A stretch of 41,517 bases of DNA, taken from positions 1 to 41,517 of the forward strand of contig JALSJL010000469.1 of NCBI GenBank assembly GCA_026989405.1, in the 5' to 3' direction. The DNA is from Marinosulfonomonas sp. GTDB taxonomy: Bacteria > Pseudomonadota > Alphaproteobacteria > Rhodobacterales > Rhodobacteraceae. The translations under genes were made by a program, and so were the position numbers. Under the pieces are notes generated by a model. The model made no database searches. It saw only the letters and a list, made by a program, of their open reading frames with translations, and was not told the DNA's origin. Below are positions 13,081 to 32,647 of this stretch, in pieces; positions within the stretch are counted from its first letter, which is position 1, and each line of letters begins with the position of its first letter.

Positions 13081-13250
13081 TGCTCTCTGTGTGTGTTCCG
13101 GGTCGCCCGGATTTGCGGGTCTGGGCCAGTTTGGCCAGCCCCGTGCCCACTGTCAAACACGATCCCGGCCCAAAAGCCTTTGACACCTGTGGCACGTTGT
13201 GGCAGAGGGCATCAAATCTCGTGAAATGATGAATGACGAAAGGGGTTCAC

Positions 13251-13649: not shown

Positions 13650-13725
<76 letters not shown>

Positions 13726-13746: not shown

Positions 13747-15066
13747 TCAGAAGACGCCCTGAAACGCGGTCGCCAGTTTTCCGGCAATCTCATCCACATG
13801 GCGATCTTCCATGATGAAGGGTGGCGCGAGCAATATGTGGTCGCCCCTCTTTCCATCGATCGTTCCACCCATCGGATAGCAAATCAGACCCGCATCGAAT
13901 GCCGCGCGTTTGAGCAGCTTGTGGGTGCCCCGTTCGGCCGGGAACGGCGCCTTGCTGTCGCGGTCTTCGACGATTTCTATTCCGAGAAACAGCCCGCGCC
14001 CCCGGATATCGCCCACATGCGGGTGTTGGCCAAAGGCATCCTGCAGCGCATCGCGCAACTGCTCTCCCCTTGAGCGGACCTGTTGCATCATCGCCGGCTC
14101 GGTAACTTTCTTCAGCACCGCCAATGCTGCGGCACAGGCTGTCGGATGGCCGACATAGGTGTGACCATGCTGAAAAAAACCTGATCCCTCTGCAATGGCC
14201 CGGTAGATCCTGCCCGAACACATCATGGCGCCAATGGGTTGATAGCCCGCGCCCAGCCCCTTTGCGACAACTGCAATGTCCGGATCGATGCCGTCCTGTT
14301 CACTGGCAAAAACCGTCCCGGTCCGGCCCATGCCGCACATGACCTCATCAAGGATCAGCAATACCCCATGACGGCTGCAGATATCGCGAATTCTCTCAAA
14401 ATATCCCGCGACCGGCGTGACCGCGCCCATGGTGGCACCCACGACCGGCTCGGCGACAAAGGCCATGACATTCTCGGCGCCAAGCCGCAGAATTTCACTT
14501 TCCAGCTCATCTGCAACACGCCGGCCGTAGTCCGCGGCGCTCTCGTCGGGGTGGCAATCACGATAGGCGTAACACGGCGAGATATGCGAGGTTTCGATCA
14601 TCATGGGCGAAAACGGCTCTCGGCGCCACATGTTGCCGCCGGTCGCAAGCGCACCAAGCGTGTTCCCATGGTAGCTTTGGCGCCGGGCAATCACCCGGTG
14701 TCTTTGCGGCTCTCCTGTTTCGAGGAAATACTGCCTTGCGAGTTTCAGGGCGGCCTCGACGGCTTCCGAGCCGCCGGATACGAAATAGACCCGGTCAAGT
14801 GAGGCTGGCGCGACGTCCACCAGCAGATCTGCAAGTTGCTCGGCCGCGTCCGAAGTGAAAAACCCGGTGTGGGCGAAGGCCACCTTGTCGATCTGCTCCT
14901 TTATGGCCGAAATGACATCCGGGTCGGAATGCCCAAGGCAAGACACGGCAGCACCGCCCGAGCCGTCGAAATACTGTTTGCCGTCGCGGTCATAAAGATA
15001 CACGCCATCGCCGCGCTCTGCGGTCGGGGGCGGCGGCCCGGCGTGTCTGGGAAATACATGGCTCAT
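13747..15066 (-). CDS. class III (omega-type) PLP aminotransferase
   Basis: 439 aa with LILDEVMCGMGRTG and GHTYVGHP motifs typical of the acetylornithine/GABA/omega-aminotransferase family. Confidence 0.85.
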   Translation of the reverse strand: MSHVFPRHAGPPPPTAERGDGVYLYDRDGKQYFDGSGGAAVSCLGHSDPDVISAIKEQIDKVAFAHTGFFTSDAAEQLADLLVDVAPASLDRVYFVSGGSEAVEAALKLARQYFLETGEPQRHRVIARRQSYHGNTLGALATGGNMWRREPFSPMMIETSHISPCYAYRDCHPDESAADYGRRVADELESEILRLGAENVMAFVAEPVVGATMGAVTPVAGYFERIRDICSRHGVLLILDEVMCGMGRTGTVFASEQDGIDPDIAVVAKGLGAGYQPIGAMMCSGRIYRAIAEGSGFFQHGHTYVGHPTACAAALAVLKKVTEPAMMQQVRSRGEQLRDALQDAFGQHPHVGDIRGRGLFLGIEIVEDRDSKAPFPAERGTHKLLKRAAFDAGLICYPMGGTIDGKRGDHILLAPPFIMEDRHVDEIAGKLATAFQGVF

Positions 15067-15185
15067 GTCAAGACCGATCCTGAATATTCATCCCTATGAA
15101 GCATGAAAGGAGCCTTCGGGCAAACTGTTGATGTGGCGGGGCCGGGCGCCCCTTGGCCGGCCGGCCGCGCTTGTCTCGACGCCCC

Positions 15186-15770
15186 TCAGCGCAGCCCGTC
15201 CCGGCCTTCTGCGTCTTCGGCCTTCAGCCCGCCGACGCGTGGCAACGGCCGGCCGCTGTCTGTGACAGCCACAGCGACAAGAATTTCGTTCGCGCGCGGC
15301 GCATCGTTCAGCCTGACCTCGATCCCGTCGAAATGGCTGCGCACATAGGCGGCGTCCTTGTGACCGAGCGGCACGTCGAGCGCTTGCCCCATGCCCCCCA
15401 TCTTTTTCGATGACGGCACCAGGGCCGCCCCTTTCCCGACCGCCTTTCGCAGCGGCGCGCCAAGTTTGGGGTGCAGGATCGCGGCGGCATGTTCCAGTTC
15501 CCCGTTTTCACCGACCATGGCCGCCTTGCCATAGCTTTGGGCGTTCTCGGCCGTGATCCCCAGGGCCGCCACGCATTTTTCGCCCAGAAGCCCGCCCAAC
15601 TCGGCGCCGATCTCGATCAGATCACTCAGGTCCTCGACGTATTTTCCGGCGCAAGGGTTGGCAATGACCGCAGCGGCCACGGCCTTGCGCGTCGGGGGCG
15701 ATATTGTCTGACCGGCTTCGCGGCATGTCTCTTCGACAAAAATGGCGATCTTCCTGATGTCGGCTTTCAT
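15186..15770 (-). CDS. 'amino acid synthesis' family protein (DUF1185 / PF06684-like), paralog 1
   Basis: 194 aa, colinear with the adjacent 195-aa paralog. Blocks NPxAGxYVE, YGKxAxVGExGELEH, VPSxKKxGG, LDVP...YVRSHFD, DAPxAxEIL; ends in DGLR. The family call is from memory of such proteins and needs an HMM check. Confidence 0.6.
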   Translation of the reverse strand: MKADIRKIAIFVEETCREAGQTISPPTRKAVAAAVIANPCAGKYVEDLSDLIEIGAELGGLLGEKCVAALGITAENAQSYGKAAMVGENGELEHAAAILHPKLGAPLRKAVGKGAALVPSSKKMGGMGQALDVPLGHKDAAYVRSHFDGIEVRLNDAPRANEILVAVAVTDSGRPLPRVGGLKAEDAEGRDGLR

Positions 15771-16354
15771 CGCAATCCATCCTCTCCCTTGATCTGCCAG
15801 GCTTCCAGCCCGCCGGACCGCGAGTGCACCCGCCCCCCGGTGCTCATGACCAGAACCAGCAGGATTTCATCGGCTTTCGGGGCATCCGCCAACCCGACCT
15901 CCATCGCATCGAAATGGCTGCGCACATATGAGGCATTGGTATGGGTAATGGGCACATCCAGCCTTGTTCCCGGGCCACCGACCTTTTTGGCCGACGGAAC
16001 GATTGCATTGCTGGAGCCGAGCAACTGGCGCATGGCATATCCTCCGGGCGCATGCCAGAGCGCGCCGTGTTCCAGCTCGCCCGCTTCCCCGACGATCGCG
16101 CCCTTGCCGTAGCCCTCGATCATGCCCGGCCCCCCGAGCATGTCGACCAGCCGTTGTGCCATTCTCAGGCCAAGCGGACGCAGGTCTTCGATGAACCCCT
16201 GGATAGTCTCGACATATCGCCCTGCGAACGGGTTTTCGACCACCGCCAGAGCAGCCGCCCGGCGTTGCGGGCTTTCGGGCGGGGGGCCGAACTCATGGAA
16301 GATATCTTCACAATGAGTGGCAAATTTCCTCAGGATCGGTTCAGGCATGTTCAA
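15767..16354 (-). CDS. 'amino acid synthesis' family protein (DUF1185 / PF06684-like), paralog 2
   Basis: 195 aa with the same conserved blocks as paralog 1. Its stop overlaps the paralog 1 start (ATGA at 15767-15770). Confidence 0.6.
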   Translation of the reverse strand: MNMPEPILRKFATHCEDIFHEFGPPPESPQRRAAALAVVENPFAGRYVETIQGFIEDLRPLGLRMAQRLVDMLGGPGMIEGYGKGAIVGEAGELEHGALWHAPGGYAMRQLLGSSNAIVPSAKKVGGPGTRLDVPITHTNASYVRSHFDAMEVGLADAPKADEILLVLVMSTGGRVHSRSGGLEAWQIKGEDGLR

Positions 16355-17225
16355 CCCTTCCAGAGCCGGGGGCGGTCATTGGCAGATGCCCCACCATACG
16401 GTGCGCGCCCCGCAGAAACAAAGCGGCGGCTTCGATCAGCCCGGCCCGATGAAATGCTTGCGCGCGCCTCTGTCCCCGGTCGAGCGCCCGGCGGATATCA
16501 CCACGAGACAGCTCTCCGACCGCGGTCACAACCGCGCGCGCGCCCAGATCGCTGTCGGGCTGAAGCGCGTTCGCCGGCGCACGGGAAATGGCCGGGTGCC
16601 GCGGCAGGTCGACGTCGTTGGCGATCAGCGTGGCCGCAACATCGGCCGCGGCGGCAGACCGGGCCAGAACGGTCACGCTGTCGGCGATACCCATGGACAG
16701 CGAACGCCCGCCAAGGCCGCTGGTCGCAAGACCGCGCACCTTCGTCTCGGCGTCCACCGAGACCACCCCAAGCCGGTGGCCTTGCGGCCCTGCAATCGCC
16801 ACCTCGAAACCGGGGCGGGGCGTGCAGTTCGGCGAAAGATGCAGCGCAATGTCTCCGCCGTTGTTCACATAGGCCCGCCGCAAGGGGGCGGCCGCCTGCA
16901 TGGCCGCCAGCACCTCTTCGGCAACGGCGCCGGCAACGGCCGCCATGGGCGTCACGAAAACCCCGTCGAGCCCGCGAACCGCGGCGCCCATGCGGGCTGC
17001 GACGGCGCCCTCGAACCGGGTGTCGACCCCCACGGGACGGCGCAGAAGCGCAAGCTCCGACACCAGTTCTTCAAGGATCGAGGCAAACCGCCCCTGTGCC
17101 GCCGAAAAGGCGTCCGGGTGCGCAGCTTCGGCCCCGATGATCAGATCGATCGGACCGTGCTGCAGATGCAACCGCTTGCCGGAAAGCCAGGTAGAACGTG
17201 GCCCCATCATGGTTTGCCGTCCCAT
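16341..17225 (-). CDS. UPF0280 family protein (ApbE-like fold suspected)
   Basis: About 290-aa ORF overlapping both neighbours. The alternative start at 17210 would give an ATGA overlap with the upstream stop. The family call rests on memory of this conserved neighbourhood (hnr - UPF0280 - DUF1185) and on size; needs an HMM check. Confidence 0.5.
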   Translation of the reverse strand: MGRQTMMGPRSTWLSGKRLHLQHGPIDLIIGAEAAHPDAFSAAQGRFASILEELVSELALLRRPVGVDTRFEGAVAARMGAAVRGLDGVFVTPMAAVAGAVAEEVLAAMQAAAPLRRAYVNNGGDIALHLSPNCTPRPGFEVAIAGPQGHRLGVVSVDAETKVRGLATSGLGGRSLSMGIADSVTVLARSAAAADVAATLIANDVDLPRHPAISRAPANALQPDSDLGARAVVTAVGELSRGDIRRALDRGQRRAQAFHRAGLIEAAALFLRGAHRMVGHLPMTAPGSGRVEHA

Positions 17226-18694
17226 TTGTAACGCCCTGGATCATGCGGATCCGGCCCGAAACCCCTGACCCGCCGCACTTGTCCTTCCTGGATCGTGTCC
17301 AGCGGCCGGACGTCCTCCATATGTCCGCCCAGGTCCCGATAGTCGGCCAGCCGCATGGTAAACTCGATCGGCGCGACAAGGGCCGGTGTCGGCACATACC
17401 CGAACGCGTTGGTGGGCATTTCGGTAACATCAGCCATGACCGTGATACCGCCCCCCGGCCAGACATAGGCCTGCGCCCCGCCACAGGAAACATAGGTCAG
17501 CGCATCGCGCACCGAACGGGTCAGCCGCACCGGGTTTTCCGTGACCCCGGCCCGCAACGAGCCGCCGGCGCCGCCCATGAACAAGACCGAGCAAAACGAA
17601 GGTTCGCAGTTTTCGGCAATGCGCTCGACTGACGCCTTCAAGGCCGTCGGTATCGGGGCCGGCTGCGGAACCAGATCGGCGTCGAGTTCGAAATAGGCAA
17701 ATTGCTCGCCGGTTGTCGAAACCATCAGCAAACGAAGCCCGGGCCATGCGTATTCGGGGTCTGCGTCCTTGAGGACGGCCAACGGATCCTGCACATTCGT
17801 GCCGCCCCAGCCGGTGCCCGGCTCTGCCACCTGAAAATAGCGGCCCGGTGTTGACCGGCGCCCGTTCACCCGGATGCCCGTGCGTTTCACGCCAAGCAGC
17901 TTGCCCGCCTGATGTTCAGACAGAACGCCGGTAATGTGATCATCGACGACGATGACCTCATCCGCATGATCAACCCATTGGGCCGCAAACATGCCGATGG
18001 CGGCCGACCCGCAGCCCACGCGCATCAGTTTTTCCGCGGTCCCTTCGATTATCGGCGCCTTTCCGGCCTGCACCACGACCTGCGCGCCTTCGTCGATGTC
18101 CATCGTCACCGCGTCCCGGTTGCACAGCCGCAGCACGGCATCACAGGTCACCCGCCCCTCTCGCTTGGAGCCGCCGGTCAGATGCTCGACCCCACCCAGA
18201 GACAGCATGCGCGATCCGTATTCGCTGGTCATGACATGACCGATTGCTTCCCCGTCCACGCGCACCACGGCGCGTTCCTGTCCGATATGGCGGTCGGTGT
18301 CGATCTTCACCTTGACGCCGCAGTAGGAAAATATCCCCTCGGTTACGACGGTCACCATGTCGATGCCGTCGATTTCCTGACTGACGATGAAAGGTGCCGG
18401 TTTGTAGTCAGGGTAGGTTGTGCCCGCGCCAATGGCGGTCACGAACTGGCGACGGCTGTGCAAAAGGTCGCCATCCCAGTCGGCATCGCCGTTTTCGCCC
18501 AGAAACGGCACGGACCTGACACCTTTCCCGGCGCTGGTTTCCAGGATCGTGAGGGGGTCCAGGCGGACCAGCCGGCCTTCCTGGTTTGCATAGCGGTCGC
18601 ACGCCCCGGCCCGACCTTCGGCGATGAAGCACAGAACGGGGCACGCATCGCAACGGATCTTGTCTGCGGAAGCTGTGCGGGATTTCCCGGTCAT
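17207..18694 (-). CDS. 6-hydroxynicotinate reductase-like iron-sulfur flavoprotein
   Basis: Tracked ORF 17207..18769 trimmed to the Met at 18694 (ATGA overlap with the upstream hydroxylase stop). N-terminal Cys cluster CDACPVLCFIAEGRAGAC (CxxCxxxCx9C). Flanked by an XDH-family hydroxylase and an enamidase-like amidohydrolase, as in nicotinate clusters. Confidence 0.6.
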   Translation of the reverse strand: MTGKSRTASADKIRCDACPVLCFIAEGRAGACDRYANQEGRLVRLDPLTILETSAGKGVRSVPFLGENGDADWDGDLLHSRRQFVTAIGAGTTYPDYKPAPFIVSQEIDGIDMVTVVTEGIFSYCGVKVKIDTDRHIGQERAVVRVDGEAIGHVMTSEYGSRMLSLGGVEHLTGGSKREGRVTCDAVLRLCNRDAVTMDIDEGAQVVVQAGKAPIIEGTAEKLMRVGCGSAAIGMFAAQWVDHADEVIVVDDHITGVLSEHQAGKLLGVKRTGIRVNGRRSTPGRYFQVAEPGTGWGGTNVQDPLAVLKDADPEYAWPGLRLLMVSTTGEQFAYFELDADLVPQPAPIPTALKASVERIAENCEPSFCSVLFMGGAGGSLRAGVTENPVRLTRSVRDALTYVSCGGAQAYVWPGGGITVMADVTEMPTNAFGYVPTPALVAPIEFTMRLADYRDLGGHMEDVRPLDTIQEGQVRRVRGFGPDPHDPGRYKWDGKP

Positions 18695-21426
18695 GTTGCG
18701 CCCCCGCGATCGATGGCCGCCTTCAGCCGCGCCGGCGTGACTGGCAGCCGGGTGACACGCACACCGCATGCGGCCCTGATTGCATTCAAGATCGCCGGAG
18801 CCGTGGGCACCAGGGCATGTTCGCCCAGCCCCTTGGCCCCGTATGGCCCATGCGGGTCCGGCTCTTCCACAATCAGCGTTTCAATCGGAGGAATATCGCC
18901 GATTGTCGGGATCAGGTAGTCATGCAGGTTTTCGGTCTTGCCGGGAACATATTCTTCCATCAGAGCCATGCCCAGGCCTTGCGCAATCCCGCCCTGGATC
19001 TGGCCTTCGACCAACAGGGGGTTGATGGCACGGCCGACATCATGGGCCGCCACCATGCGCAGGACGCGGGTCGTGCCCAGCGCCATGTCCACCTCGACGA
19101 CGGCCAACTGCGCGGCGTAGCCAAACTGGGCGTAGGGCTCGCCCTGCCCGTTTTCATCCAGCGGTCTTGTGGGCGGGTCGTAGGTTTCTGCGGCCCGGAA
19201 GACATAGCCTTCGCGGTCGGCATCAAGGCGGGCCAGGTCAATTCGATGGCTCTTGCCGTCGTCGCGCACATGGATGCTTCCGGCGCGCAGGTCAATCACA
19301 CTGTCCGGCGCTGCATTCACCTTGCCAAGTATGTCACGCCGCAGCGCCTCGCCGGTCAGGCGCGCTGCATTTCCGCTGACAAATGTCTGACGTGATGCCG
19401 ATGTCTTGCCGGCATCCGGCGTGATGTCGGTATCGGCCCCCAGGATCCTCATCCTGGAAATCGGCACGCCAAGCGCTTCAGAGAAAATCTGCGCAATAAC
19501 GGTGTTGGAGCCTTGCCCGATATCGACCGCTCCCTGATGGAGCACCAGCGAACCATCGGCGAGGATGCCGGCCTTGATCGTCGAGGGGTTGGGAAGTGAC
19601 GTGTTTCCGCAACCATACCAGCCACAGGCCAGGCCGACTCCCCGTCGCACCCCAGGCGTCGCGCCGCCGGCGTTGACAGCTTTCGCCGCCGCCCGTTCGC
19701 GCTGCCAGAACGGGCGCAGAGCCCTGAGGCAGGCGCCGATACCGACGCCGCGCTCAAACACCTGTCCGCAGACCGTGGGCATGCCATTTTCCAGGGCGTT
19801 TTTCAGCCGGAACTCCAGCGGGTCCAGGCCCAGTTTTTCGGCCAGGTCATCAAACAGGCTTTCTTGCGCCACGGCCGCCTGTGGCACCCCGAAGCCACGA
19901 AACGCACCCGATGGCGGCGCGTTGGTGTGCACGGCCTTCGCCGATGCCCGGTAAGCGCCAACCCGATAGGGGCCCGACGCATGAACCGGCACACGGTTGG
20001 CAACCGTCGGGCCCCATGATGCGTAGGCCCCGGTATTGAATTCCGCTTTGAAATCAAAAGCCTGGATGGCTCCGTCGGCGTTTGCTCCGATCGTCAGACG
20101 CATGATCGCCGGATGCCGTTTGGTTGTCGATTTCATCGACTCCGACCGCGTATAGGCCAGCCTTGCCGGGCGGCCTGTCGCCAGCGCTGCCAGCGCCAGA
20201 TACGGTTGAACCGACAGATCGAGCTTGGCTCCGAACCCCCCGCCAACAGCGGTCGGCACGATGCGGATCCGGTCTGGCTCCATTGCCAGAATACCGGCCA
20301 GGGCTTCCTGGTCCATGGCGGGGGCTTGCGTGCAGGCGTGCAGCTCCAGCCGGCCATCAACCATCTGCGCAAACCCGGCTTCGGGCTCGATATAGGCATG
20401 CTCCACGAATGACGTCTGAAATTCACCGGACACAGTCACGTCCGCCTCGCGCAGGGCGGCTTTCGGATCACCCTGCAAGACAAAACCCTCGCACATCAGG
20501 TTGCCGGGGCGGTCGGCGTGAAGGGGTGTTGCATCGCGCGCCTGTGCCGACGCCAGGTCTTCGACACCCGGCAAGCGGGAAAAGCGGATCGGCAGGTCAT
20601 CAAGATCGAGCGCCCGCAAGGCCGGCGGCTCGCCAATGACCGACGCAACGGCCTCGCCTCTGAACCGGCAGAGTTTTTCTGCAAAAACCGGCTGGTCAAG
20701 AAAGCCCGGAATGACGCCGAACCGATTGCACCCCGGCACGTCCGCAGCCGTCTGGACGGCAACGATCCCCGGATGCGCTGCCAGAAAGGCGGTCGTATCG
20801 CCGATCTCGAAGCTCGCCGCGGCATGGGGAGACCGGACCACCCGAATTTCCAGAGTGCCCGGCGGCGCGATGTCGTCACCGAATTTCTCGCGGCCCTCGA
20901 CTTTTGCCAGACCATCGGTTTTTCGGATCGCCGCCCCGACGCCCCCCTCGCGCAGGCGTTCTTCAGGCGCGCGCACCGCCAGCACGGCCGCAATGATCTT
21001 GCGGTATCCCGTGCACCTGCACAAGACACCGCCAAGCGCATCCATCACCGCTTTTTCGTCGGGCTCCGGGCACTCGCGCAACAGCGCCGTCGCGCAGACC
21101 AGCATGCCCGGCGTGCACACCCCACATTGAGCGGCGCCAAAATCCTGAAAGCTCTCGCAGAGCCCGGCGGCAATCGGGTCACCTCCGGCAAGCCCCGACA
21201 CGGTTTCAACCAGGCGACCGGCCGCCTGGTGGACCGGCATGAGGCAGGCGCAAATCGGTTTGCCATCCACCAGAACGGTGCAGGCGCCACAGTCTCCGGC
21301 ATCGCATCCGACCTTCACATCGCGGCCATCAAGCCGTTCGCGCAGCGCATGAGACAGCCGTTCGCCGGGATCGGCCGTCACAGTGACCGGCCGGCCGTTC
21401 AGGTTGAACGCCACCATATCAGTCAT
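18691..21426 (-). CDS. xanthine dehydrogenase-family molybdenum hydroxylase, fused 2x[2Fe-2S] + MoCo subunits (candidate nicotinate/N-heterocycle hydroxylase)
   Basis: N-terminus has CDAGDCGACTV, CGVCTPGM and CRCTGY ferredoxin motifs. The C-terminal ~750 aa is an aldehyde oxidase/XDH a/b-hammerhead plus MoCo-binding region (VGGGFGAKL). 911 aa. Confidence 0.85.
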   Translation of the reverse strand: MTDMVAFNLNGRPVTVTADPGERLSHALRERLDGRDVKVGCDAGDCGACTVLVDGKPICACLMPVHQAAGRLVETVSGLAGGDPIAAGLCESFQDFGAAQCGVCTPGMLVCATALLRECPEPDEKAVMDALGGVLCRCTGYRKIIAAVLAVRAPEERLREGGVGAAIRKTDGLAKVEGREKFGDDIAPPGTLEIRVVRSPHAAASFEIGDTTAFLAAHPGIVAVQTAADVPGCNRFGVIPGFLDQPVFAEKLCRFRGEAVASVIGEPPALRALDLDDLPIRFSRLPGVEDLASAQARDATPLHADRPGNLMCEGFVLQGDPKAALREADVTVSGEFQTSFVEHAYIEPEAGFAQMVDGRLELHACTQAPAMDQEALAGILAMEPDRIRIVPTAVGGGFGAKLDLSVQPYLALAALATGRPARLAYTRSESMKSTTKRHPAIMRLTIGANADGAIQAFDFKAEFNTGAYASWGPTVANRVPVHASGPYRVGAYRASAKAVHTNAPPSGAFRGFGVPQAAVAQESLFDDLAEKLGLDPLEFRLKNALENGMPTVCGQVFERGVGIGACLRALRPFWQRERAAAKAVNAGGATPGVRRGVGLACGWYGCGNTSLPNPSTIKAGILADGSLVLHQGAVDIGQGSNTVIAQIFSEALGVPISRMRILGADTDITPDAGKTSASRQTFVSGNAARLTGEALRRDILGKVNAAPDSVIDLRAGSIHVRDDGKSHRIDLARLDADREGYVFRAAETYDPPTRPLDENGQGEPYAQFGYAAQLAVVEVDMALGTTRVLRMVAAHDVGRAINPLLVEGQIQGGIAQGLGMALMEEYVPGKTENLHDYLIPTIGDIPPIETLIVEEPDPHGPYGAKGLGEHALVPTAPAILNAIRAACGVRVTRLPVTPARLKAAIDRGGAT

Positions 21427-22309
21427 GGCGCACCGCCAGCCCGGCTGCCGACGTCATGGCCCGGCGGATCAGTTCGGCGGCGGCGTCCAGCCGATAGCCA
21501 GCCGTGGCGCGGACATCATCGATGGCGGCAAGGGCCGACAGGTCCTGCGGTCTCACCAATGCCGGGTCGGCCAGGCCGGATACCGGCGTGCCCTGCAAAC
21601 GCTGCTCCAGCGCGCCCAACCTGGTGGCCACGGGCGAACAGGCCCCCACGGCCACCCGAAGATCGTCCAGGCACCCCGCCTTCAGCCGAACCGCCACCGC
21701 GACCATCGCAATCGAGATCACAAGATATTGCCGCGCGCCCAGTTTTTCGAAGGCGCTGGCAAGGCCCCTTGCCGGCGGGATACGCACGCCGATCAGGATT
21801 TCGTCCTTGTGTCGCGCGGTCTTGCGGACCCCCCGCAAGAATTGCGACAGGGCAATGACGCGCTTTCCGCTGACAGAAGCAAGATGCACTTCGGCATCCA
21901 GAACCAGCAGCGGCGGTATTCCATCAGCCGCCGGCGATGCGTTGCAGATATTGCCGCCAAGGGTTGCCGCGTTCTGAATCTGTCGGGCGCCAACCTCGCG
22001 CGCCGCCTGTTGCAGTCCGCAAAAGGCCGGCGGCAGATCGGCATCCCGGATTTCGGCCCAGGTGGTCGCGCCACCGATCCACCAACCGCCCCCCTGGTCC
22101 TTGCCCTCAGGCCAGATACCCCGCAACGTCTCGATGCGCGTGATGTCCAGCAGGTCGCGATCAGGCACCGATTGACCGGCGGCCGGAAAATGGTCCGTTC
22201 CGCCAGCCACAATCTGCGCCCCCGCCGCAAGAACGTCCAATGCGTCATCCAGAGAATTGGGAGCGAAATAGGTCACGGCTTTCCCTGCGCGGTTTTGTTT
22301 GCATGCCAA
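21419..22309 (-). CDS. FAD-binding subunit of the molybdenum hydroxylase (CoxM/XdhB-like)
   Basis: 296 aa with the AGGTD motif (IVAGGTDHFPA). It overlaps the downstream hydroxylase start by 8 nt. A GTG at 22276 is an alternative start. Confidence 0.8.
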   Translation of the reverse strand: MACKQNRAGKAVTYFAPNSLDDALDVLAAGAQIVAGGTDHFPAAGQSVPDRDLLDITRIETLRGIWPEGKDQGGGWWIGGATTWAEIRDADLPPAFCGLQQAAREVGARQIQNAATLGGNICNASPAADGIPPLLVLDAEVHLASVSGKRVIALSQFLRGVRKTARHKDEILIGVRIPPARGLASAFEKLGARQYLVISIAMVAVAVRLKAGCLDDLRVAVGACSPVATRLGALEQRLQGTPVSGLADPALVRPQDLSALAAIDDVRATAGYRLDAAAELIRRAMTSAAGLAVRHD

Positions 22310-22428
22310 CGATACGTCCCCAGGCCGATCGCTGTCAATTTCCCAGTCAGCAAGGGCCCTGGTTTCCCCGGCTTGATCGCCTCTGCAAACATGTTAGCAT
22401 ACGAATGAAATCATGCTGGGGGGTGCCC

Positions 22429-23607
22429 ATGGACAGACACTCACAAAAACTGGTGGTGCGCAACATCGGCTTGATGCTGTCAGGCATGCTGGAACACCCC
22501 ATTCTTGACGCCGACTGCATTGTCGCCGTTGACGGGAAGATCGCGGCCATCGGATTTGAAAAAGACCTGGACACCGACGGCGCAACGACGACTGTCGATG
22601 CACATGGCGTCACGCTTGCCCCGGGTCTGATCGACAGCCACGTTCACCCTGTCATCGGAGACTATACGCCGCGCCAGCAACAGCTGCACTGGATCGACAG
22701 CACGTTGCATGGCGGCGTGACAACCATGATTTCGGCAGGTGAAGTTCATTTGCCGGGTCGGCCCAAGGATGTGGTCGGCCTCAAGGCGATGGCCATCGCG
22801 TCGCAGAGATGGTACGAAAATTTCCGCCCGTCGGGCGTCAAGGTTCATGCCGGCGCGCCCATTCTTGAAGAAGGCATGGTCGAACAGGACTTCAAGGACC
22901 TGGCCGACGCCGGCGTCAAGCTGTTGGGCGAAGTCGGCCTTGGAACCGTCAAGGACGGCAAGACGGCAAGACAAATGGTCGGCTGGGCAAGAAAATACGG
23001 CATTCAAAGCACCATCCATACCGGGGGCCCCTCAATCCCGGGATCGGGACTGATCGACGCCGACATGGTTCTGGAAACCGGCGCCGACGTCATTGGCCAC
23101 ATCAACGGCGGCCACTCTGCCTTGCCCGATGATCAGATCATCTGCCTTTGTGAAAACTGCTCCAAGGGGCTGGAAATCGTGCACAACGGCAATGAGCGCG
23201 CCGCTGTCCTGACGCTGAATACCGCGCGCGAGCTGAAACAACTGAACCGGGTCATTCTCGGAACTGACGGGCCGGCGGGATCGGGGGTGCAGCCGCTTGG
23301 CATCTTGCGGATGGTGTCGATGTTGTCAGCCTTTGGCAATGTTCCGGCCGAGCAGGCGTTTTGTTTTGCAACCGGCAACACGGCGCGCGAACGCGGGCTG
23401 GATTGCGGCATTCTCGCTCACGGTCGCTCGGCGGATTTCGTTCTCATGGACCAGGCCCAGCACGCCCCGGGAAAGAACATTCTCGAAAGCGTGCAGCTTG
23501 GCAACCTGCCGGGTATCGGCATGACGATCATTGATGGTGTCATTTGCAGCCATCGCAGCCGCAACACGCCGCCGGCACAGCGCTTGCCCCAGGAGGTGAC
23601 CGCCTGA
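22429..23607 (+). CDS. enamidase-like metal-dependent amidohydrolase
   Basis: Tracked ORF 22240..23607 trimmed to the Met at 22429 (GGGGGG RBS-like sequence). About 392 aa with the HxH metal motif IDSHVHP. Divergent from the hydroxylase/hnr operon, matching the ena position in nicotinate clusters. Confidence 0.65.
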   Translation: MDRHSQKLVVRNIGLMLSGMLEHPILDADCIVAVDGKIAAIGFEKDLDTDGATTTVDAHGVTLAPGLIDSHVHPVIGDYTPRQQQLHWIDSTLHGGVTTMISAGEVHLPGRPKDVVGLKAMAIASQRWYENFRPSGVKVHAGAPILEEGMVEQDFKDLADAGVKLLGEVGLGTVKDGKTARQMVGWARKYGIQSTIHTGGPSIPGSGLIDADMVLETGADVIGHINGGHSALPDDQIICLCENCSKGLEIVHNGNERAAVLTLNTARELKQLNRVILGTDGPAGSGVQPLGILRMVSMLSAFGNVPAEQAFCFATGNTARERGLDCGILAHGRSADFVLMDQAQHAPGKNILESVQLGNLPGIGMTIIDGVICSHRSRNTPPAQRLPQEVTA

Positions 23608-23763
23608 CCAGATCGGCACCCGACACCAAGCGCCCCTGTTGTGCGGCCGACCTGCCCCGAACCTTCCGGGACTTCGAATTTTCTGGACAATAATTTTGCT
23701 GGCACTCAATCTAGTGGAAAACGACCGGGAGCTGGTCGACACTCAATACCAGGGAGACGAAAC

Positions 23764-25050
23764 ATGGCTCAACAGAAAACCGATGGCCTGATCGCACCGA
23801 CCCGCCGGGCGGTGCTCAAGGGCGTGGCGGCGACAGGCCTGGCAACGGCCATGCCCGGCCACCTGTATGGCGCAACCGACGAGCCGATCCGCGTCGGATT
23901 TCAGGTGCACCGCACCGGCATCGGCGCATCCTACGGCCGCTGGTATGACCGCACGACCACCGCCGCGGCCCGCGTCATCAACGAAGCCGGCGGGATCAAC
24001 GGCAGACCCCTCGAGATCATTGCCGAAGACGACGGCACCGACCCGAAACGCGGGGCGGAAGTCCTTGAGAAATTCGCAAACCAGCACAATTGCGATATTG
24101 CCTACGGCACATTGTTCAGCCATGTGGTCATCGGATCGGCCCCGCGCGCGGCCGAGTTGAAACTGCCCTATTTCGTGGTCTCTGAAGGCCACCATGTCGC
24201 GTCCGGCATGCTCAACCGCTACACGCTGCAACCGGGTATCACCGACGTCAAGAGCCAGGTCCAGGCCATGGCCCCGTTTGTCGCGGCCAACCTTGGCAAG
24301 AAGGTCACGATGATCTACCCGGATTTCGCTTTCGGCCACAACCACCGGGATTTCTTCGGTGACGCGATCGAAAAGGAAGGCGGCCAGGTTGTCGCGAAAA
24401 TCGCCATTCCGCCAACCGAAACATCTTTCACCCGGTATTTCCCGCAGATCCCGCGCGAGACCGAGGTGATCTATCATGTGATGGTCGGTCCGGCCGTTCT
24501 GACCTTTGTGAAGGAGATGGGCGAATTTTTCGGCCCGTCGAGCCCGGAAATTTTCGGGTTCATCGATTCACTCGAGGCCGTCGACCTGGCAACGCCGGGG
24601 CTGGAATTTCTGGACGGGTCCTTCTTCTGGGAAGGCCACCCGCGCTATGCACAGCCGGACCAGACCGAATATGACAAATTCTACCGTGAGCAGGTCGGCG
24701 TCGATGAAAATGGCGCCTCGGTCGATGACCCCAGGGACGTTTCCACCTACTCGCACATGTTCGCGTGCTGGGAAACGCTGCATGTGATCAAGGATGGCAT
24801 GGAAGCGGCGGGCTACAAGGGGCCGCAGGACCGGGCGGCGCTGATCGAAGCGGTCGAGGCGATGACCGACATGCCGGAAAGCCGGGCCCATCCACAGGGC
24901 CCCAAGATATTCAACGGCAAGACCCACCAGGTTTTCGGCGTGCAGTATATCAGCCAGGTCAACGGCGGCCGGCTTGACGTGAAACATGTCACGTCGATCG
25001 AAGACGGGCTGTATCCGGACGAAGTGGACTACACCACCCAGCCGCTCTGA
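23764..25050 (+). CDS. ABC transporter periplasmic substrate-binding protein (Leu/Ile/Val-binding, HAAT family) with Tat-type signal
   Basis: Tracked ORF 23641..25050 trimmed to the Met at 23764 (AGGGAGA RBS). N-terminal PTRRAVLKGVAATGLATAMPG fits the S/T-R-R-x-F-L-K twin-arginine motif. Followed by LivHMGF-type genes. Confidence 0.75.
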   Translation: MAQQKTDGLIAPTRRAVLKGVAATGLATAMPGHLYGATDEPIRVGFQVHRTGIGASYGRWYDRTTTAAARVINEAGGINGRPLEIIAEDDGTDPKRGAEVLEKFANQHNCDIAYGTLFSHVVIGSAPRAAELKLPYFVVSEGHHVASGMLNRYTLQPGITDVKSQVQAMAPFVAANLGKKVTMIYPDFAFGHNHRDFFGDAIEKEGGQVVAKIAIPPTETSFTRYFPQIPRETEVIYHVMVGPAVLTFVKEMGEFFGPSSPEIFGFIDSLEAVDLATPGLEFLDGSFFWEGHPRYAQPDQTEYDKFYREQVGVDENGASVDDPRDVSTYSHMFACWETLHVIKDGMEAAGYKGPQDRAALIEAVEAMTDMPESRAHPQGPKIFNGKTHQVFGVQYISQVNGGRLDVKHVTSIEDGLYPDEVDYTTQPL

Positions 25051-25060
25051 GACCCGAGTC

Positions 25061-25090
25061 GCATGCCCTGCCCGCTGGGGTCGGGCATGC
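25061..25090 (+). other. intercistronic stem-loop between the binding-protein and permease genes
   Basis: GCATGCCC (25061-25068) / GGGCATGC (25083-25090), an 8-bp stem with a 14-nt loop, 10 nt after the SBP stop. Such hairpins often set SBP:permease stoichiometry. Confidence 0.4.
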
Positions 25091-25124
25091 ATCGCAGCCA
25101 CCGTTCCAACCACATCAGGACGCT

Positions 25125-26051
25125 ATGGATTTCGGCCCGCACCTACTCCTTGCCATGCTCGAAGGGCTTGTGCAGGCCTCGGTCCTGACGCTGACGGCGC
25201 TGGGGCTGTCACTGGTTTTCGGTGTGATGCGGGTCGTGAATGTCGCCCATGGCGAATTTTTCATGCTGGGTGCGGTGCTGGCATGGTGGATCACCTTTCT
25301 GGTTGGCGGCCCGCCGGCGCTGGCCTTCATCGTGGCACTTCTGGTTGCGCCACTTCTGGTGGGAACAATTGCCGCTGCCGCCGACTGGCTGGTCTTGCGC
25401 CGGATCGACTATGATCCCGAGCGCACGATCGTTGCCACGATCGGGCTCTTGTATATTATCCAACAGCTCACGCTGATGTCCTATGGGCCGGATGCGCGCC
25501 CGGTTGCGCCGCCGTTCAACACGCGTCTGGCTCTGCCCTGGTTCGAATTCGGCAGCGGGGGGGTGCAGATCTACTGGCCCTGGGGCCTTTCGATCACAAG
25601 TTACAAGCTGTTCGTCATATTCGCAGCCCTTCTGACCGGGCTTGCTCTCTGGGCGGTCATGGCGCGGTCCCGCCTCGGGCTGATCTTGCGGGCAACCCAG
25701 CAAGACCGGGAAACCGCGCAGGCATTCGGCGTGCCGGTCGAGCGTGTCTATGCCCTGGTTTTCGGCCTTGGCGCGGCCCTTGCGGCCCTGGGCGCGACAC
25801 TGGTCGTGCCCATTCAGCAGGCGCATTACCTGATGGGAGGCGATCCGCTGCTGCTCAGCTTCATCGTGGTGATTATCGGCGGGCTGGGCTCGTTGCGCGG
25901 CACTGTTGTCGCGGCCATTCTCATCGGCATGAGCGACGGCATCATCTCGGTTTTCTTTTCCCCCACGCTGGCCAAGATGCTGGCCACGCTTCTTGTGGCC
26001 ATGGTGCTGGTCTTTCGCCCGCAGGGTCTGTTCGGAAGCAAGCCGGCATGA
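25125..26051 (+). CDS. branched-chain amino acid-type ABC transporter permease (LivH-like)
   Basis: 308-aa polytopic membrane protein typical of LivH-type permeases. ATGA overlap with the next permease gene. Confidence 0.85.
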   Translation: MDFGPHLLLAMLEGLVQASVLTLTALGLSLVFGVMRVVNVAHGEFFMLGAVLAWWITFLVGGPPALAFIVALLVAPLLVGTIAAAADWLVLRRIDYDPERTIVATIGLLYIIQQLTLMSYGPDARPVAPPFNTRLALPWFEFGSGGVQIYWPWGLSITSYKLFVIFAALLTGLALWAVMARSRLGLILRATQQDRETAQAFGVPVERVYALVFGLGAALAALGATLVVPIQQAHYLMGGDPLLLSFIVVIIGGLGSLRGTVVAAILIGMSDGIISVFFSPTLAKMLATLLVAMVLVFRPQGLFGSKPA

Positions 26052-26983
26052 GCCGCGCCGTGGGCCTGCACCTGGGGGTGATCGCCGCGCTGTTGGCGTT
26101 GCAGTTCGTGTTGCCGGCCTATCACCATGGCGTCCTTGCGCGGGTGATGGTGATGGCGGTCTTTGCCATGGGCTACAACGTGATGTTCGGCTACACGGGT
26201 TTGCTGAGCCTTGGGCACGCGATGTTCTTTGCCGCCGGCATGTATGGCATGGGGCTTGCCATGAAACAGTGGGACGTGCCGCTTGTGCCGGCGTTCCTGC
26301 TGGGCATCGCGGCGGCGTTCCTTCTGGCGCTTGTCGTCGGCGTGCTGGCACTGCGCACGGCGGGCGTGGCCTTCATGATCGTGACGCTGATGTTTTCACA
26401 GTCCCTTTTCCTGGCCATTCTCCATTTCGGGGCGATCACCCGCGGGGATGAGGGCTTTGCCCTGGCCCGGTCCCTGCGCCAGGTTGCCGGGCTGGACCTG
26501 GCGGCGCCGGCAACACGCTATTTCGCGGCATGGGGCCTGTTTTCCGTTGTCTTGCTTGGCACGCTCGCCCTGGTGCGCTCGCGCCGTGGTCGCGTCCTGG
26601 TGGCCATCCGGGAAAACGAAGAGCGCACCCGGATGCTGGGCTACGATGTCTGGCGCCACAAGCTGATGGCGGTTGTGGTCTCGGGCACGATCTGCGGTGC
26701 CGCGGGGGCGGCCTACGGGGTGTTGTTTGGCTATGTCGGCGCCAGCTTTTCGCAGGTGCCCTATTCGATCTTTCCGCTGTTGTGGGTGTTGCTTGGTGGC
26801 GCCGGCACGGTGATCGGGCCGTTCGTGGGAACGCTGTTCATGTTCTACCTGATCGACCTGTCCAGCGGGCTGACCGACGCATACATGCTGGTTGTTGGCG
26901 TTGCGCTCGTGCTGCTGACGCTGTTCCTGCCCAGGGGGCTGATGGGAAGCCTGCGCGACCGGGGGATGAAATGGCTGCCGTGA
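26048..26983 (+). CDS. branched-chain amino acid-type ABC transporter permease (LivM-like)
   Basis: 311-aa polytopic membrane protein with the YTGLLSLGHAMFF motif typical of LivM. Confidence 0.85.
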   Translation: MSRAVGLHLGVIAALLALQFVLPAYHHGVLARVMVMAVFAMGYNVMFGYTGLLSLGHAMFFAAGMYGMGLAMKQWDVPLVPAFLLGIAAAFLLALVVGVLALRTAGVAFMIVTLMFSQSLFLAILHFGAITRGDEGFALARSLRQVAGLDLAAPATRYFAAWGLFSVVLLGTLALVRSRRGRVLVAIRENEERTRMLGYDVWRHKLMAVVVSGTICGAAGAAYGVLFGYVGASFSQVPYSIFPLLWVLLGGAGTVIGPFVGTLFMFYLIDLSSGLTDAYMLVVGVALVLLTLFLPRGLMGSLRDRGMKWLP

Positions 26984-27687
26984 GCTTGTTGAGCACCCAT
27001 GCCCTGAGCCGCAACTATGGCGGGTTGCAGGCCGTGAAAAACGTCAGCCTTGACATATCGCAGGGCGAGGTCCGCGCGCTGATCGGGCCAAATGGCGCCG
27101 GAAAGACCACCCTGGTTTCAATGCTGTGCGGACGCATCCCGGCGACCTCTGGCCAGGTGGTGTTCGAGGGCCGCGACGTGACAACCCTGCCCGCTCACCG
27201 ACGCATAGCACTGGGCATGGCCTATACGTTCCAGATCACGTCCGTTTTTGCCGAACTGAGCGTGAGTGAAAACGTGGAACTGGCCGTTCAGCGGCATATC
27301 GCCGAGCGCCAGAAGATCACGGCACAGGTTGACCGGACGCTGGAACGGGTCGGGCTGGGCCGGATGGCAGACAGGACCGCAGGCGACCTTGCCTATGGCC
27401 ACCAGAGGTTGCTGGAAATTGCGATGGGTCTGGGACAGACTCCAAAACTGTTGATCCTCGATGAGCCGACGCAGGGACTGTCCGACAGCGAGATCGAAGA
27501 CTTTGTTGCGCTCATCCGCTCGGTTTCGGAAAAATCAACTGTCCTGCTCATCGAGCACAACATCAATGTTGTCATGGCGCTTGCCGACAAGATCACCGTT
27601 CTGAATTTCGGAGAGATCATCGCCGAGGGCACACCCGGGGAAATCCGTGCAAACGAGGCGGTGCAGACCGCCTATCTGGGGGGCTGA
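26971..27687 (+). CDS. ABC transporter ATP-binding protein (LivG-like)
   Basis: Tracked ORF 26530..27687 trimmed to the Met at 26971 (a GTG at 26980 is also possible). Walker A GPNGAGKTT, signature-like LAYGHQRLLEIA, Walker B LLILDEP. Confidence 0.9.
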   Translation: MAAVSLLSTHALSRNYGGLQAVKNVSLDISQGEVRALIGPNGAGKTTLVSMLCGRIPATSGQVVFEGRDVTTLPAHRRIALGMAYTFQITSVFAELSVSENVELAVQRHIAERQKITAQVDRTLERVGLGRMADRTAGDLAYGHQRLLEIAMGLGQTPKLLILDEPTQGLSDSEIEDFVALIRSVSEKSTVLLIEHNINVVMALADKITVLNFGEIIAEGTPGEIRANEAVQTAYLGG

Positions 27688-28382
27688 TGCTGGAACTGCG
27701 CAACCTTGATGCGGGCTATGGCAAGGTGCAGGTGCTGCGCGACCTTTCACTGCACGCCAGGCCCGGTGAAATCCTGTGCCTGCTCGGGCGCAACGGGGCC
27801 GGCAAGTCGACATTGATGAAATCCATCATGGGGCTGGTCCGGGCGCAGGCCGGCAGCATCTGGCTTGACGGGCAGCGGATTGACCAGCTGCCGGCCTGGC
27901 AGGTGCCCAGGCTGGGCATCGGATATATCCCTCAGGGGCGCCGGCTGTTCAACGAGATGACCGTCGCCGAGAACCTTCAGATCGGACTGATGGCGCGACG
28001 CAAGGGCGCGGATGTGCGCGAAAACGTGCTGAACATGTTTCCGCGCCTGCGTGACCGGCTGAACCAGCGGGCCGACACGCTGTCGGGTGGTGAACAGCAG
28101 ATGCTGGCCACCGCCCGCGCGTTGTGCCTTGAACCAGGTGTCTTGTTGCTTGATGAGCCGACAGAGGGTTTGCAGCCCTCGATGATATCGCTGATCCGCG
28201 CGGCGGTTGTCGCGCTCAGGAAACAGGGGGTTGCCATCGTTCTGGTCGAACAGCGGGTGGAAGCCGTCCTGCAGGTCGCCGATCGGGTGACATTTGTGGA
28301 AAACGGTCAATGCGTGCTGACGGTCACGCCCAGCGAACTGCACGCCGACGAAAGCCTGCTGCATCGCTACGTCGGGGTTTAG
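27687..28382 (+). CDS. ABC transporter ATP-binding protein (LivF-like)
   Basis: Walker A GRNGAGKST, signature LSGGEQQML, Walker B LLLDEP. TGATG 1-nt overlap with the upstream ATPase gene. Confidence 0.9.
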   Translation: MLELRNLDAGYGKVQVLRDLSLHARPGEILCLLGRNGAGKSTLMKSIMGLVRAQAGSIWLDGQRIDQLPAWQVPRLGIGYIPQGRRLFNEMTVAENLQIGLMARRKGADVRENVLNMFPRLRDRLNQRADTLSGGEQQMLATARALCLEPGVLLLDEPTEGLQPSMISLIRAAVVALRKQGVAIVLVEQRVEAVLQVADRVTFVENGQCVLTVTPSELHADESLLHRYVGV

Positions 28383-28406
28383 GGTCAGGACCCGTTCATC
28401 CTGCCC

Positions 28407-28850
28407 CTAGGTCAGTTTGCGCAGCAGGTGAAGAAACAGCGCCTGCTCGCTTTGCGACAACGGAACCAGTGTTTCTTCGGTGACGCGCCGGGCCTTTGGC
28501 TCGAGCTCCTGGAACAAGGCGCGTCCGGCATCTGTCAGTGAAACGATGGTGCGGCGGCGGTCGGTCTTGTCGTTTTCCGTCCTGACCAGATCGCGCTTCC
28601 CAAGCCTGTCGACGACACCCTTGATCGTGGCGGCATCCATCGCCGTCAGACGTCCGAGCGCGTTTTGCGACAGTGCGCCGGCTTCGTTCAGCTTGGCAAG
28701 CGTGGCAAACTGCATCGAGGTCAACTCGGGTATCGTCGCCGTAAACAGCGAAAGATGGCGTTGCGATGCCCGGCGCAGCAAAAACCCGACCTGATCGTCA
28801 AGACGATAGGGTATCGTGGCAGGGTCGTCGGTCGGGTCTGGCGCGCTCAT
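28407..28850 (-). CDS. MarR family transcriptional regulator
   Basis: wHTH region LTSMQFATLAKLNEAGALSQNALGRLTAMDAATIKGVVDRLGKRDLV...DKTDRRR. Start set at the Met at 28850 because the longer ORF (28922) would run into the upstream terminator hairpin. Confidence 0.85.
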   Translation of the reverse strand: MSAPDPTDDPATIPYRLDDQVGFLLRRASQRHLSLFTATIPELTSMQFATLAKLNEAGALSQNALGRLTAMDAATIKGVVDRLGKRDLVRTENDKTDRRRTIVSLTDAGRALFQELEPKARRVTEETLVPLSQSEQALFLHLLRKLT

Positions 28851-28912
28851 GGGGTCCAAGCTGACGCAAAAGGGGCGATCAGTAAAGCGCCGCGGTGTTT
28901 TTTCACGGGAAA

Positions 28913-28937
28913 GGCCGGGCAAGTCTTGCGCCCGGCC
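28913..28937 (-). terminator. hairpin terminator after the coxM-like gene
   Basis: GGCCGGGC (28913-28920) / GCCCGGCC (28930-28937), an 8-bp GC stem with a 9-nt loop. On the minus strand it is followed by TTTCCCGTGAAAAAA, and it lies 28 nt after the coxM-like stop. Confidence 0.45.
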
Positions 28938-29747: not shown

Positions 29748-29759
29748 TTTTCCGGCTCC

Positions 29760-32129: not shown

Positions 32130-32179
32130 TGTTGATCTCCCTGTTTATCCGTTCCGCCCGGCATGGACGGGGCGCGTGC

Positions 32180-32647
<468 letters not shown>

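Follow-up and report, generated by a model that had tools for sequence, protein, structure and literature searches.

A probable nicotinate uptake and reductive ring-opening gene cluster in a Rhodobacterales-like alphaproteobacterium

The gene cluster

The DNA considered here is a stretch of 41,517 nucleotides from Marinosulfonomonas sp. (assembly GCA_026989405.1, contig JALSJL010000469.1, positions 1 to 41,517), which is referred to below as the window. It contains a cluster of genes related to the nicotinate degradation genes of Eubacterium barkeri. The gene map was built from a listing of the open reading frames (ORFs) together with Pfam and NCBIfam scans of the window ORFs. Positions 15186-28922 are occupied by two divergent, translationally coupled operons and one gene for a MarR-family regulator. 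Every gene that an earlier note on this DNA had listed is present where the note placed it or within a few codons of that place.

Six of the genes are on the minus strand. The first two encode a putative nicotinate hydroxylase of the xanthine dehydrogenase (XDH) family, namely an FAD-binding subunit (21419-22309), which is an NdhF ortholog with PF00941 and PF03450 and has 32% identity to E. barkeri NdhF, and a subunit of 911 amino acids (18691-21426) in which two [2Fe-2S] domains are fused to the molybdenum cofactor (MoCo) domains (Fer2, Fer2_2, Ald_Xan_dh_C, MoCoBD_1 and MoCoBD_2). They are followed by genes for a 495-amino acid 6-hydroxynicotinate reductase (Hnr) of the form that we call aerobe-type (17207-18694), a cytoplasmic UPF0280 protein with an ApbE fold (16341-17225) and two DUF1185 (PF06684) paralogs. 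Paralog a, the diverged copy, is at 15767-16354 (PF06684, E 7e-70) and paralog b is at 15186-15770 (PF06684, E 8e-73). Because each of the genes from the FAD subunit to DUF1185b overlaps the next one by 4-19 nucleotides, the six are considered to be translationally coupled.

A divergent promoter region of about 120 bp (22310-22428) separates the hydroxylase operon from the operon on the plus strand. The latter begins with an enamidase gene, ena (1,4,5,6-tetrahydro-6-oxonicotinate amidohydrolase/deaminase, EC 3.5.2.18; 22429-23607), and continues with a gene for a periplasmic substrate-binding protein (23641-25050; Peripla_BP_6, E 2e-47) of a putative nicotinate/6-hydroxynicotinate ATP-binding cassette (ABC) importer and with LivH-, LivM-, LivG- and LivF-type genes (25125-26051, 26048-26983, 26980-27687 and 27687-28382; two BPD_transp_2 and two ABC_tran domains). 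The MarR-family gene (28407-28922, minus strand; PF01047) is convergent with the importer genes. A sigma70-like promoter at 22338-22309 overlaps the listed TTG start of the FAD subunit, and the true start of this subunit is probably a few codons downstream.

The window was compared with 92 loci, which carry L-numbers below. Eighty of them came from an enamidase-alignment scan of species-representative genomes, and the others were found through Hnr homologs and plasmid hits. E. barkeri (L083) had no entry in the 80-locus scan; it was reached by a protein search with a Firmicute Hnr ortholog, a cluster look-up and then its encoding contig. Acetobacterium bakii is L001. The same block is present in 90+ loci across several phyla, which is far from what would be expected of a chance arrangement.

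The hydroxylase and the enamidase

The earlier note had proposed that the cluster follows the hydroxylase, ring reductase and enamidase logic of E. barkeri. This similarity holds at the ortholog level and not just at the superfamily level, with identities of 32-44% for NdhF, NdhS, NdhL and NdhM, 41% for Hnr and 46% for the enamidase. The FAD, 2x[2Fe-2S] and MoCo domains of an XDH-family nicotinate dehydrogenase were all found by Pfam. The 911-amino acid chain has collinear matches to E. barkeri NdhS (44%), NdhL (38%) and NdhM (40%), and so the window enzyme differs from the four-subunit Ndh of E. barkeri in having S, L and M joined in one chain.

The comparison of the product of 22429-23607 with the E. 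barkeri enamidase, for which there is a crystal structure (PDB 2VUN), gave 46% identity over 379 amino acids without a gap (BLASTP, E 1e-123). In a phmmer search residues 70-449 of the query matched residues 3-382 of the 2VUN chain with an E-value of 4e-109, and all other amidohydrolase matches in the PDB had E-values of 2e-6 or higher. Six residues of the 2VUN query (H65, H67, E162, H191, H218 and D274) are unchanged in the window enamidase in a two-sequence alignment. We take them to be the ligands of a binuclear metal site (HxH, Glu, His, His and Asp) from the general pattern of the amidohydrolase family rather than from the 2VUN coordinates.

Hnr and its electron supply

The product of 17207-18694 was compared with E. 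barkeri Hnr (HNR_EUBBA, identified by cluster look-up as P0244). The two proteins are 41% identical over 451 amino acids (E 7e-103), with residues 13-463 of the window protein aligned to residues 66-493 of the E. barkeri protein. An alignment of 80 Hnr sequences has 90 invariant columns, and the window protein keeps the invariant Cx2Cx3Cx9C motif (C15, C18, C22 and C32).

The Hnr sequences are of two types. An N-terminal 2x[4Fe-4S] domain, recognized by two Cx2Cx2Cx3C motifs, is present in all 53 of the complete anaerobe-type sequences and in none of the 16 aerobe-type sequences; A. bakii Hnr, which is cut at the start of its locus, was left out of this count. Aerobe-type proteins, including the one in the window, start at the Cx2Cx3Cx9C motif, which is followed by an insertion of about 20 amino acids. 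The aerobe-type clade consists of the window Hnr and 15 others that are 64-79% identical to it, from Alphaproteobacteria and one Acidobacteriota metagenome-assembled genome. Because the window Hnr does not have the built-in 2x[4Fe-4S] domain, it must draw its electrons from a separate donor. A ferredoxin-NADP reductase (FNR) gene adjoins the cluster in six of the 16 aerobe-type loci, two of which also have a 7Fe ferredoxin, and in none of the 53 anaerobe-type loci. In these two (L082, 18334-19509 and L084, 13671-14853) a 7Fe-type ferredoxin (Fer4 and DUF3470) and an FNR-like gene come directly after the DUF1185 pair, and this pair of genes is likely to be an electron-supply module for aerobe-type Hnr.

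Hnr had no match in the local Pfam or NCBIfam scans, and there is no Pfam family for its catalytic body. An AlphaFold model had a pLDDT of 83.5, with values above 90 in the core (residues ~100-470), and Foldseek found nothing in the PDB at E<=1e-3 for this model (best TM-score 0.11), so no fold was assigned. Although Hnr has at least 8000 homologs, the family seems to be uncharted in structural terms. In L029 and L037 the hnr and UPF0280 genes seemed to be fused, but an in-frame stop is located between them, and the fusions were discarded as artefacts of ORF extension.

UPF0280

The UPF0280 gene follows hnr with great regularity. Sixty loci have hnr, and UPF0280 is present in 53 of these; the contig ends too early in another six, and only one locus is truly without it. 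In 49 of the 53 loci that have both genes, UPF0280 is directly downstream of hnr on the same strand. UPF0280 is never present in a locus that has no hnr, and both genes are missing from 23 loci.

The window protein is recognized by NCBIfam PRK04334.1-2 (346 bits, cutoff 290) and had no match in the local Pfam scan; precomputed hits label it as PF27030 (AbpE_bact) and, weakly, as PF02424. It has no signal peptide or lipobox, which indicates a cytoplasmic protein. An alignment of 31 orthologs from at least six phyla has invariant TPMAAVAG, NNGGDIA, ATSGxxGRS and ADAxAT motifs. The profile made from this alignment matches the structure of a family member (2O34, DVU1097; 1e-17) and also Vibrio cholerae ApbE (6NXJ, E 0.007), with NGGDIA aligned to IGGEI and ADaaAT aligned to ADGLAT. 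In ApbE and Ftp the GGD/GGE and ADxxAT motifs bind Mg2+/FAD. Foldseek searches with an AlphaFold model of UPF0280 (pLDDT 92.4) returned DVU1097 and then only ApbE, Ftp and FmnB proteins in ranks 1-41 (the latter in ranks 3-41, with a probability of about 1), and there was no other meaningful match.

UPF0280 thus has the fold and the GGD and A-D-x-x-x-T motifs in common with the flavin transferases ApbE, Ftp and FmnB, and transfer of FMN by UPF0280 is predicted. It differs from them in its low identity (12-16% to ApbE), its low TM-scores, the missing lipobox and a presumed client, Hnr, that does not have the canonical motif. Most likely UPF0280 matures Hnr, for example by attaching a covalent flavin. 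Alhapel et al. (2006) reportedly found that E. barkeri Hnr binds a flavin covalently, and the most economical role for UPF0280 would therefore be that of a flavin transferase dedicated to Hnr.

The DUF1185 proteins

DUF1185a matches two members of the family with solved structures over its full length (PDB 3BYQ, E 6e-54 and 2QTP, E 5e-45). Its identity is 47% with the only copy in E. barkeri and 46% with DUF1185b. The latter is closer to the single copy of the anaerobes, with 51% identity to the E. barkeri DUF1185 gene that follows ena. Enamidase and DUF1185 genes occur together in 72 of 83 loci, and two tandem DUF1185 copies occur in six of the 83, all of them in the aerobe-type clade.

DUF1185 is kept in three variants of the cluster. 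These have Hnr with the enamidase, Hnr with HyuAB (hydantoinase/oxoprolinase-type) and NicAB, or, in Chloroflexia and Acidimicrobiia, the enamidase without Hnr. Because it is kept in all three, we would place its role around the ring-opened intermediate. Most likely, although the case is a weak one, DUF1185 acts on the ring-opening intermediates, in the conversion of an enamine or imine to 2-formylglutarate.

The Pfam name of PF06684, "amino acid synthesis", deserves a comment. The two solved members, BB2672 (3BYQ) and SPO0826 (2QTP), were put in "amino-acid metabolism" largely because "branched-chain amino acid" ABC genes are located next to them. Importer genes of this Liv type belong to the nicotinate cluster in the window and its relatives. 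By extension from these loci, the name may be mistaken and may come from a Liv-type importer being read as an amino acid transporter.

Uptake and regulation

A Liv-type importer is also part of the published proteobacterial nicotinate cluster (PMC3511419). The divergent promoter contains a palindrome, TCGTATGCTAACATG, at 22390-22404 on the minus strand, the exact core of which occurs once in the window. A weaker copy, GCATGCCAACGAT, is at 22301-22313. Motifs that are nearly identical to TCGTATGCTAACATG occur by the ena or hydroxylase starts in four relatives (L081, L082, L084 and L085). TCGTATGCTAACATG is a candidate operator for the MarR/NicR protein. Homologs of the MarR protein with 40-54% identity adjoin the cluster in L074, L076 and L079, and the L086 MarR protein is 48% identical; homologs adjoin the cluster in L082 and L084-L090 as well. 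The gene is labelled NicR or nicR in some of the relatives that were annotated with Prokka.

Known and variant clusters

The E. barkeri cluster (Alhapel et al. 2006) has the order LysR, hnr, ApbE-like/UPF0280, hgd, ndhFSLM, transporter, ena, DUF1185, mgm. The window has orthologs of NdhF/S/L/M, Hnr, UPF0280, the enamidase and DUF1185 with identities of 32-51%, and the two clusters have the same hnr-UPF0280 adjacency. The chemistry of E. barkeri, in which nicotinate is converted to 6-hydroxynicotinate, then to 1,4,5,6-tetrahydro-6-oxonicotinate (THON) and then to 2-formylglutarate and NH3, is the same as that proposed here. However, the window differs in the S/L/M fusion, in an Hnr without the 2x[4Fe-4S] domain and in the doubling of DUF1185. 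It also has a Liv-type ABC importer and a MarR regulator, whereas E. barkeri has a PTS_EIIC_2-type transporter and a LysR regulator. A. bakii has the same upper genes, together with those for Mgm, Mii, a MutL-like protein, Dml, Hmd and DmdAB.

The earlier note had treated the occurrence of this gene set in an aerobic-type alphaproteobacterium as unusual. In fact, the reductive nicotinate route is already known in aerobic Proteobacteria, from the biochemistry of Azorhizobium and from a gene cluster that was described in 2006 and again in 2012. Alhapel et al. (2006) reportedly found the genes of the first three enzymes in nine Proteobacteria. A "nicotinate degradation cluster" that was found with the E. 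barkeri genes is conserved in Azorhizobium caulinodans ORS571 (AZC_2790-2804), Bradyrhizobium japonicum USDA110 (blr3818-3830), Rhodopseudomonas palustris HaA2 and the Bradyrhizobiaceae strain SG-6C (PMC3511419, 2012, including its Fig. 4, and citing Alhapel 2006). Nicotinate and 6-hydroxynicotinate both support the growth of SG-6C. The route through THON and the enamidase is common to E. barkeri and A. caulinodans (PMC9304392). On these two points, the proteobacterial clusters and the Azorhizobium route, the earlier note was correct (PMC3511419, PMC9304392). Such clusters are also annotated routinely in RefSeq, where plasmid homologs with 64-74% identity are named "6-hydroxynicotinate reductase", "UPF0280 family protein" and "amino acid synthesis family protein". 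The published proteobacterial clusters are in Hyphomicrobiales hosts, whereas the closest relatives of the window cluster are in Rhodobacterales, a comparison made at the level of the hosts.

The nic cluster of Pseudomonas putida (NicAB, NicC, NicX, NicD, NicF, NicE and NicR) has the same first step and a MarR-family regulator, and some relatives of the window cluster use NicAB. However, the window hydroxylase is of the FAD/FeS/MoCo XDH type and not of the cytochrome type of NicAB, and the window does not have NicC or NicX. P. putida cleaves the ring oxidatively, whereas the route proposed for the window reduces and then hydrolyses it.

Two variants of the cluster display different gene combinations. 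In L087 (Neorhizobium), L088 (Sagittula stellata E-37), L089 (Pleomorphomonas) and L090 (Paracoccaceae La 6), hnr, UPF0280 and DUF1185 are located beside HyuA/HyuB genes with no enamidase gene nearby; often nicAB genes of the Pseudomonas type and a MarR gene with the label nicR are present as well. The arrangement suggests that the lactam ring of THON is opened here at the expense of ATP instead of by the enamidase. In L059-L064 and L066-L072 (Chloroflexia and Acidimicrobiia), enamidase and DUF1185 genes are located beside a fused FeS/MoCo hydroxylase gene, and there is no hnr or UPF0280 within 10 kb. Their fused hydroxylases are 53-58% identical to that of the window in the Chloroflexia loci and L066 and 29-33% identical in L069-L071. 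This second variant may have a different substrate or a different reductase.

The lower pathway

As the earlier note had observed, the E. barkeri-type lower pathway (Hgd, Hmd, Mgm, Mii, DmdAB and Dml) is missing from the window, where tblastn searches with eight A. bakii orthologs gave no match at E<=1e-3. The same is true of the NicC/NicX route, since Pfam scans of the large ORFs in the window found no flavin-monooxygenase or NicX-like domain. The note had also read UPF0280 and DUF1185 as replacements for the lower pathway, and this reading has to be given up. Because both are encoded in the E. barkeri nic cluster and in A. bakii beside a complete B12 lower pathway, they are assigned to the upper module.

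In Azorhizobium, 2-formylglutarate is reported to be decarboxylated and oxidised to glutarate, which then leads to glutaryl-CoA (Kitts 1992). Downstream of ena on a Sulfitobacter pontiacus plasmid (NZ_CP081117.1; L086 1-5794, L091) there are same-strand genes for an AMP-binding ligase, a 3-hydroxyacyl-CoA dehydrogenase, an enoyl-CoA hydratase, an acyl-CoA dehydrogenase, two short-chain dehydrogenases/reductases and a VOC protein, a set that fits a glutarate/glutaryl-CoA pathway and is a candidate for the lower pathway in that organism. It was rejected as a conserved lower pathway since it is absent from S. mediterraneus (L092) and from the window. The only match to this module in the window is an AMP-binding protein (36432-38057) that is 28% identical and is not an ortholog. 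A Sagittula stellata plasmid (L088 2796-4821) has genes for a PrpB-like lyase and a PrpF-domain protein, whose families also include E. barkeri Dml and Mii. A distance of ~7 kb, with a transposase fragment in between, separates them from the hydroxylase, and they are accompanied by genes for an FAH-family hydrolase, a cupin protein and a CoA transferase.

The proposed pathway and its alternatives

We consider it very probable that the region is a module for nicotinate (vitamin B3) uptake and ring opening of the reductive THON type, located on the chromosome of a Rhodobacterales-like alphaproteobacterium. The genes are orthologous to those of the E. barkeri system and their synteny is conserved; the substrate, the mode of regulation and the functions given to UPF0280 and DUF1185 are inferred. 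According to our proposal, the Liv-type importer would take up nicotinate or 6-hydroxynicotinate, and the two-subunit Mo-hydroxylase, formed by the FAD subunit and the fused FeS/MoCo subunit, would convert nicotinate to 6-hydroxynicotinate. Hnr would then reduce the C4=C5 bond to give THON, and the enamidase would hydrolyse the enamide to 2-formylglutarate and ammonium. Both divergent operons are probably controlled by the MarR/NicR-like repressor through a TATGCTAAC-type operator. UPF0280 and DUF1185 would serve this upper module and not the lower pathway, and the enzymes for the further metabolism of 2-formylglutarate would be encoded outside the window.

Several observations weigh against this proposal or against parts of it. 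The pathway in this organism is predicted from its genes. The hydroxylase scores below every NCBIfam equivalog cutoff, so that its substrate is assigned from synteny and 32-44% identity, and the importer binding protein is a generic Peripla_BP_6 protein with a putative ligand. Searches with the proteins of the relatives found no ferredoxin or FNR in the window, and the lower pathway was sought within 41.5 kb. The TM-scores between the UPF0280 model and ApbE are 0.35-0.5, and the covalent flavin of E. barkeri Hnr is a matter of report. The flavinylation motif of ApbE client proteins is D-x-x-[ST]-G-A-[ST] (PMC12052999), and it is present in none of the 80 Hnr sequences, the nearest feature being a conserved V-G-A-G-T loop. 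Finally, the purified E. barkeri enamidase has been described as bifunctional without DUF1185 (PMC9304392), which speaks against the role suggested for the latter.

The hydroxylase and importer points would also be compatible with a cluster that degrades another N-heterocycle, for instance a different pyridine carboxylate or a related lactam, through the same series of hydroxylation, reduction and hydrolysis, since the specificity of a Mo-hydroxylase cannot be read from its sequence. The related loci are modular as well; Chloroflexia and Acidimicrobiia have the enamidase, DUF1185 and the fused hydroxylase without Hnr, and other loci have hydantoinase/oxoprolinase-type enzymes in place of the enamidase. 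However, all seven E. barkeri upper-block genes have orthologs in the window, in coupled operons, and published clusters of the same type are in strains that degrade nicotinate. Furthermore, because relatives combine hnr-UPF0280-DUF1185 with bona fide Pseudomonas-type nicAB and nicR, Hnr is tied to 6-hydroxynicotinate. Therefore, we regard a different substrate as unlikely. A still less probable suggestion, to which we give very little credence, is that UPF0280, the DUF1185 pair and a nearby class III aminotransferase (13747-15066, minus strand; NCBIfam PRK07483) form a new lower pathway that replaces the B12 route of E. barkeri; in one version a DUF1185 paralog decarboxylates 2-formylglutarate and the aminotransferase handles the semialdehyde. 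These genes do follow hnr on the same strand, the DUF1185 duplication is limited to the aerobe-type clade, and Azorhizobium reportedly needs a decarboxylation step that has no assigned gene. However, in E. barkeri and A. bakii decarboxylation would be counter-productive, UPF0280 has the fold of ApbE and not of a catabolic enzyme, and no homolog of the aminotransferase was found in any of the 92 related loci. The only role left for this explanation would be that of a neofunctionalised DUF1185a. The proposal in the earlier note that the aminotransferase replaces a pathway enzyme fails for the same reason. Because it is in 0 of the 92 loci and is set apart from the operon by a 119-bp gap and a GC-rich hairpin, the aminotransferase is most likely merely a neighbour that is outside the system.

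A further alternative concerns only the electron supply within the nicotinate module. The hydroxylase and Hnr could be a redox-neutral couple in which electrons pass from the FeS/FAD chain of the hydroxylase straight to Hnr, so that no ferredoxin is needed. The genes for the two hydroxylase subunits and Hnr overlap and are translationally coupled, the window Hnr does not have the 2x[4Fe-4S] entry domain, the window has neither ferredoxin nor FNR and, as a matter of chemical reasoning only, nicotinate hydroxylation and the Hnr reaction balance at two electrons. Against this, the FNR kept by six of the 16 clade members and the 7Fe ferredoxin kept by two of them point to electrons derived from NADPH, and relatives with the cytochrome-linked, NicAB-type hydroxylase use the same Hnr. 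The Azorhizobium hydroxylase is also said to feed the respiratory chain. Direct transfer thus appears improbable to us. Taking these results together, one can tentatively picture a five-function upper module that extends from Clostridia to roseobacters, although we would call this picture possible rather than probable. UPF0280 would flavinylate Hnr at a non-canonical site, DUF1185 would take part in the opening of the THON ring, with one of the aerobe paralogs perhaps being a decarboxylase, and the aerobes would have shed the 2x[4Fe-4S] domain of Hnr and rewired the enzyme to FNR/ferredoxin or to the hydroxylase.

What remains of interest in this cluster is how UPF0280 and DUF1185 function and that aerobe-type Hnr has lost the ferredoxin domain. 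UPF0280 and DUF1185 can now be tied across phyla to partners, Hnr and the ring-opening step, respectively, which makes their roles directly testable. If it were true, an ApbE-like maturase for a cytoplasmic Fe-S flavoenzyme without the canonical motif would widen what is known about protein flavinylation.

Neighbouring genes

The GC content across the cluster region is unremarkable, and no integrase was found near the cluster in the window, so there is no sign of a mobile island here. Relatives of the cluster are often plasmid-borne (26 plasmid hits), unlike the cluster in the window. The hairpin between the DUF1185b stop and the aminotransferase start is a GC-rich inverted repeat at 15136-15170 (16 nucleotides, 81% complementary, with a 3-nucleotide loop and no T-run). 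It could mark the boundary of the operon or be an element of the REP type. A tRNA-Ala(GGC) gene (13650-13725, plus strand) abuts the aminotransferase gene downstream, and a FYDLN_acid family gene (13233-13568, plus strand) is located near it. The flank on one side of the window contains the housekeeping genes sucC, sucA, sucB and lpd.

On the other side, a second XDH/CODH-family enzyme adjoins the MarR gene, with coxM-, coxL- and coxS-like genes at 28965-32647 on the minus strand. It was considered as the nicotinate hydroxylase and rejected, since its FAD and MoCo subunits are 27-30% identical to those of Ndh, compared with 32-40% for the cluster enzyme; the FeS subunits are nearly alike in this respect (40% for the coxS-like protein and 44% for the cluster enzyme). 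The coxMLS-like genes are followed on the same strand by coxG (32699-33223), a coxE-VWA gene (33314-34579) and a coxD-like AAA gene (34579-35517). Beyond the latter there are genes for a class IV aminotransferase, an AMP-binding ligase (acyl-CoA synthetase) and an IclR regulator.

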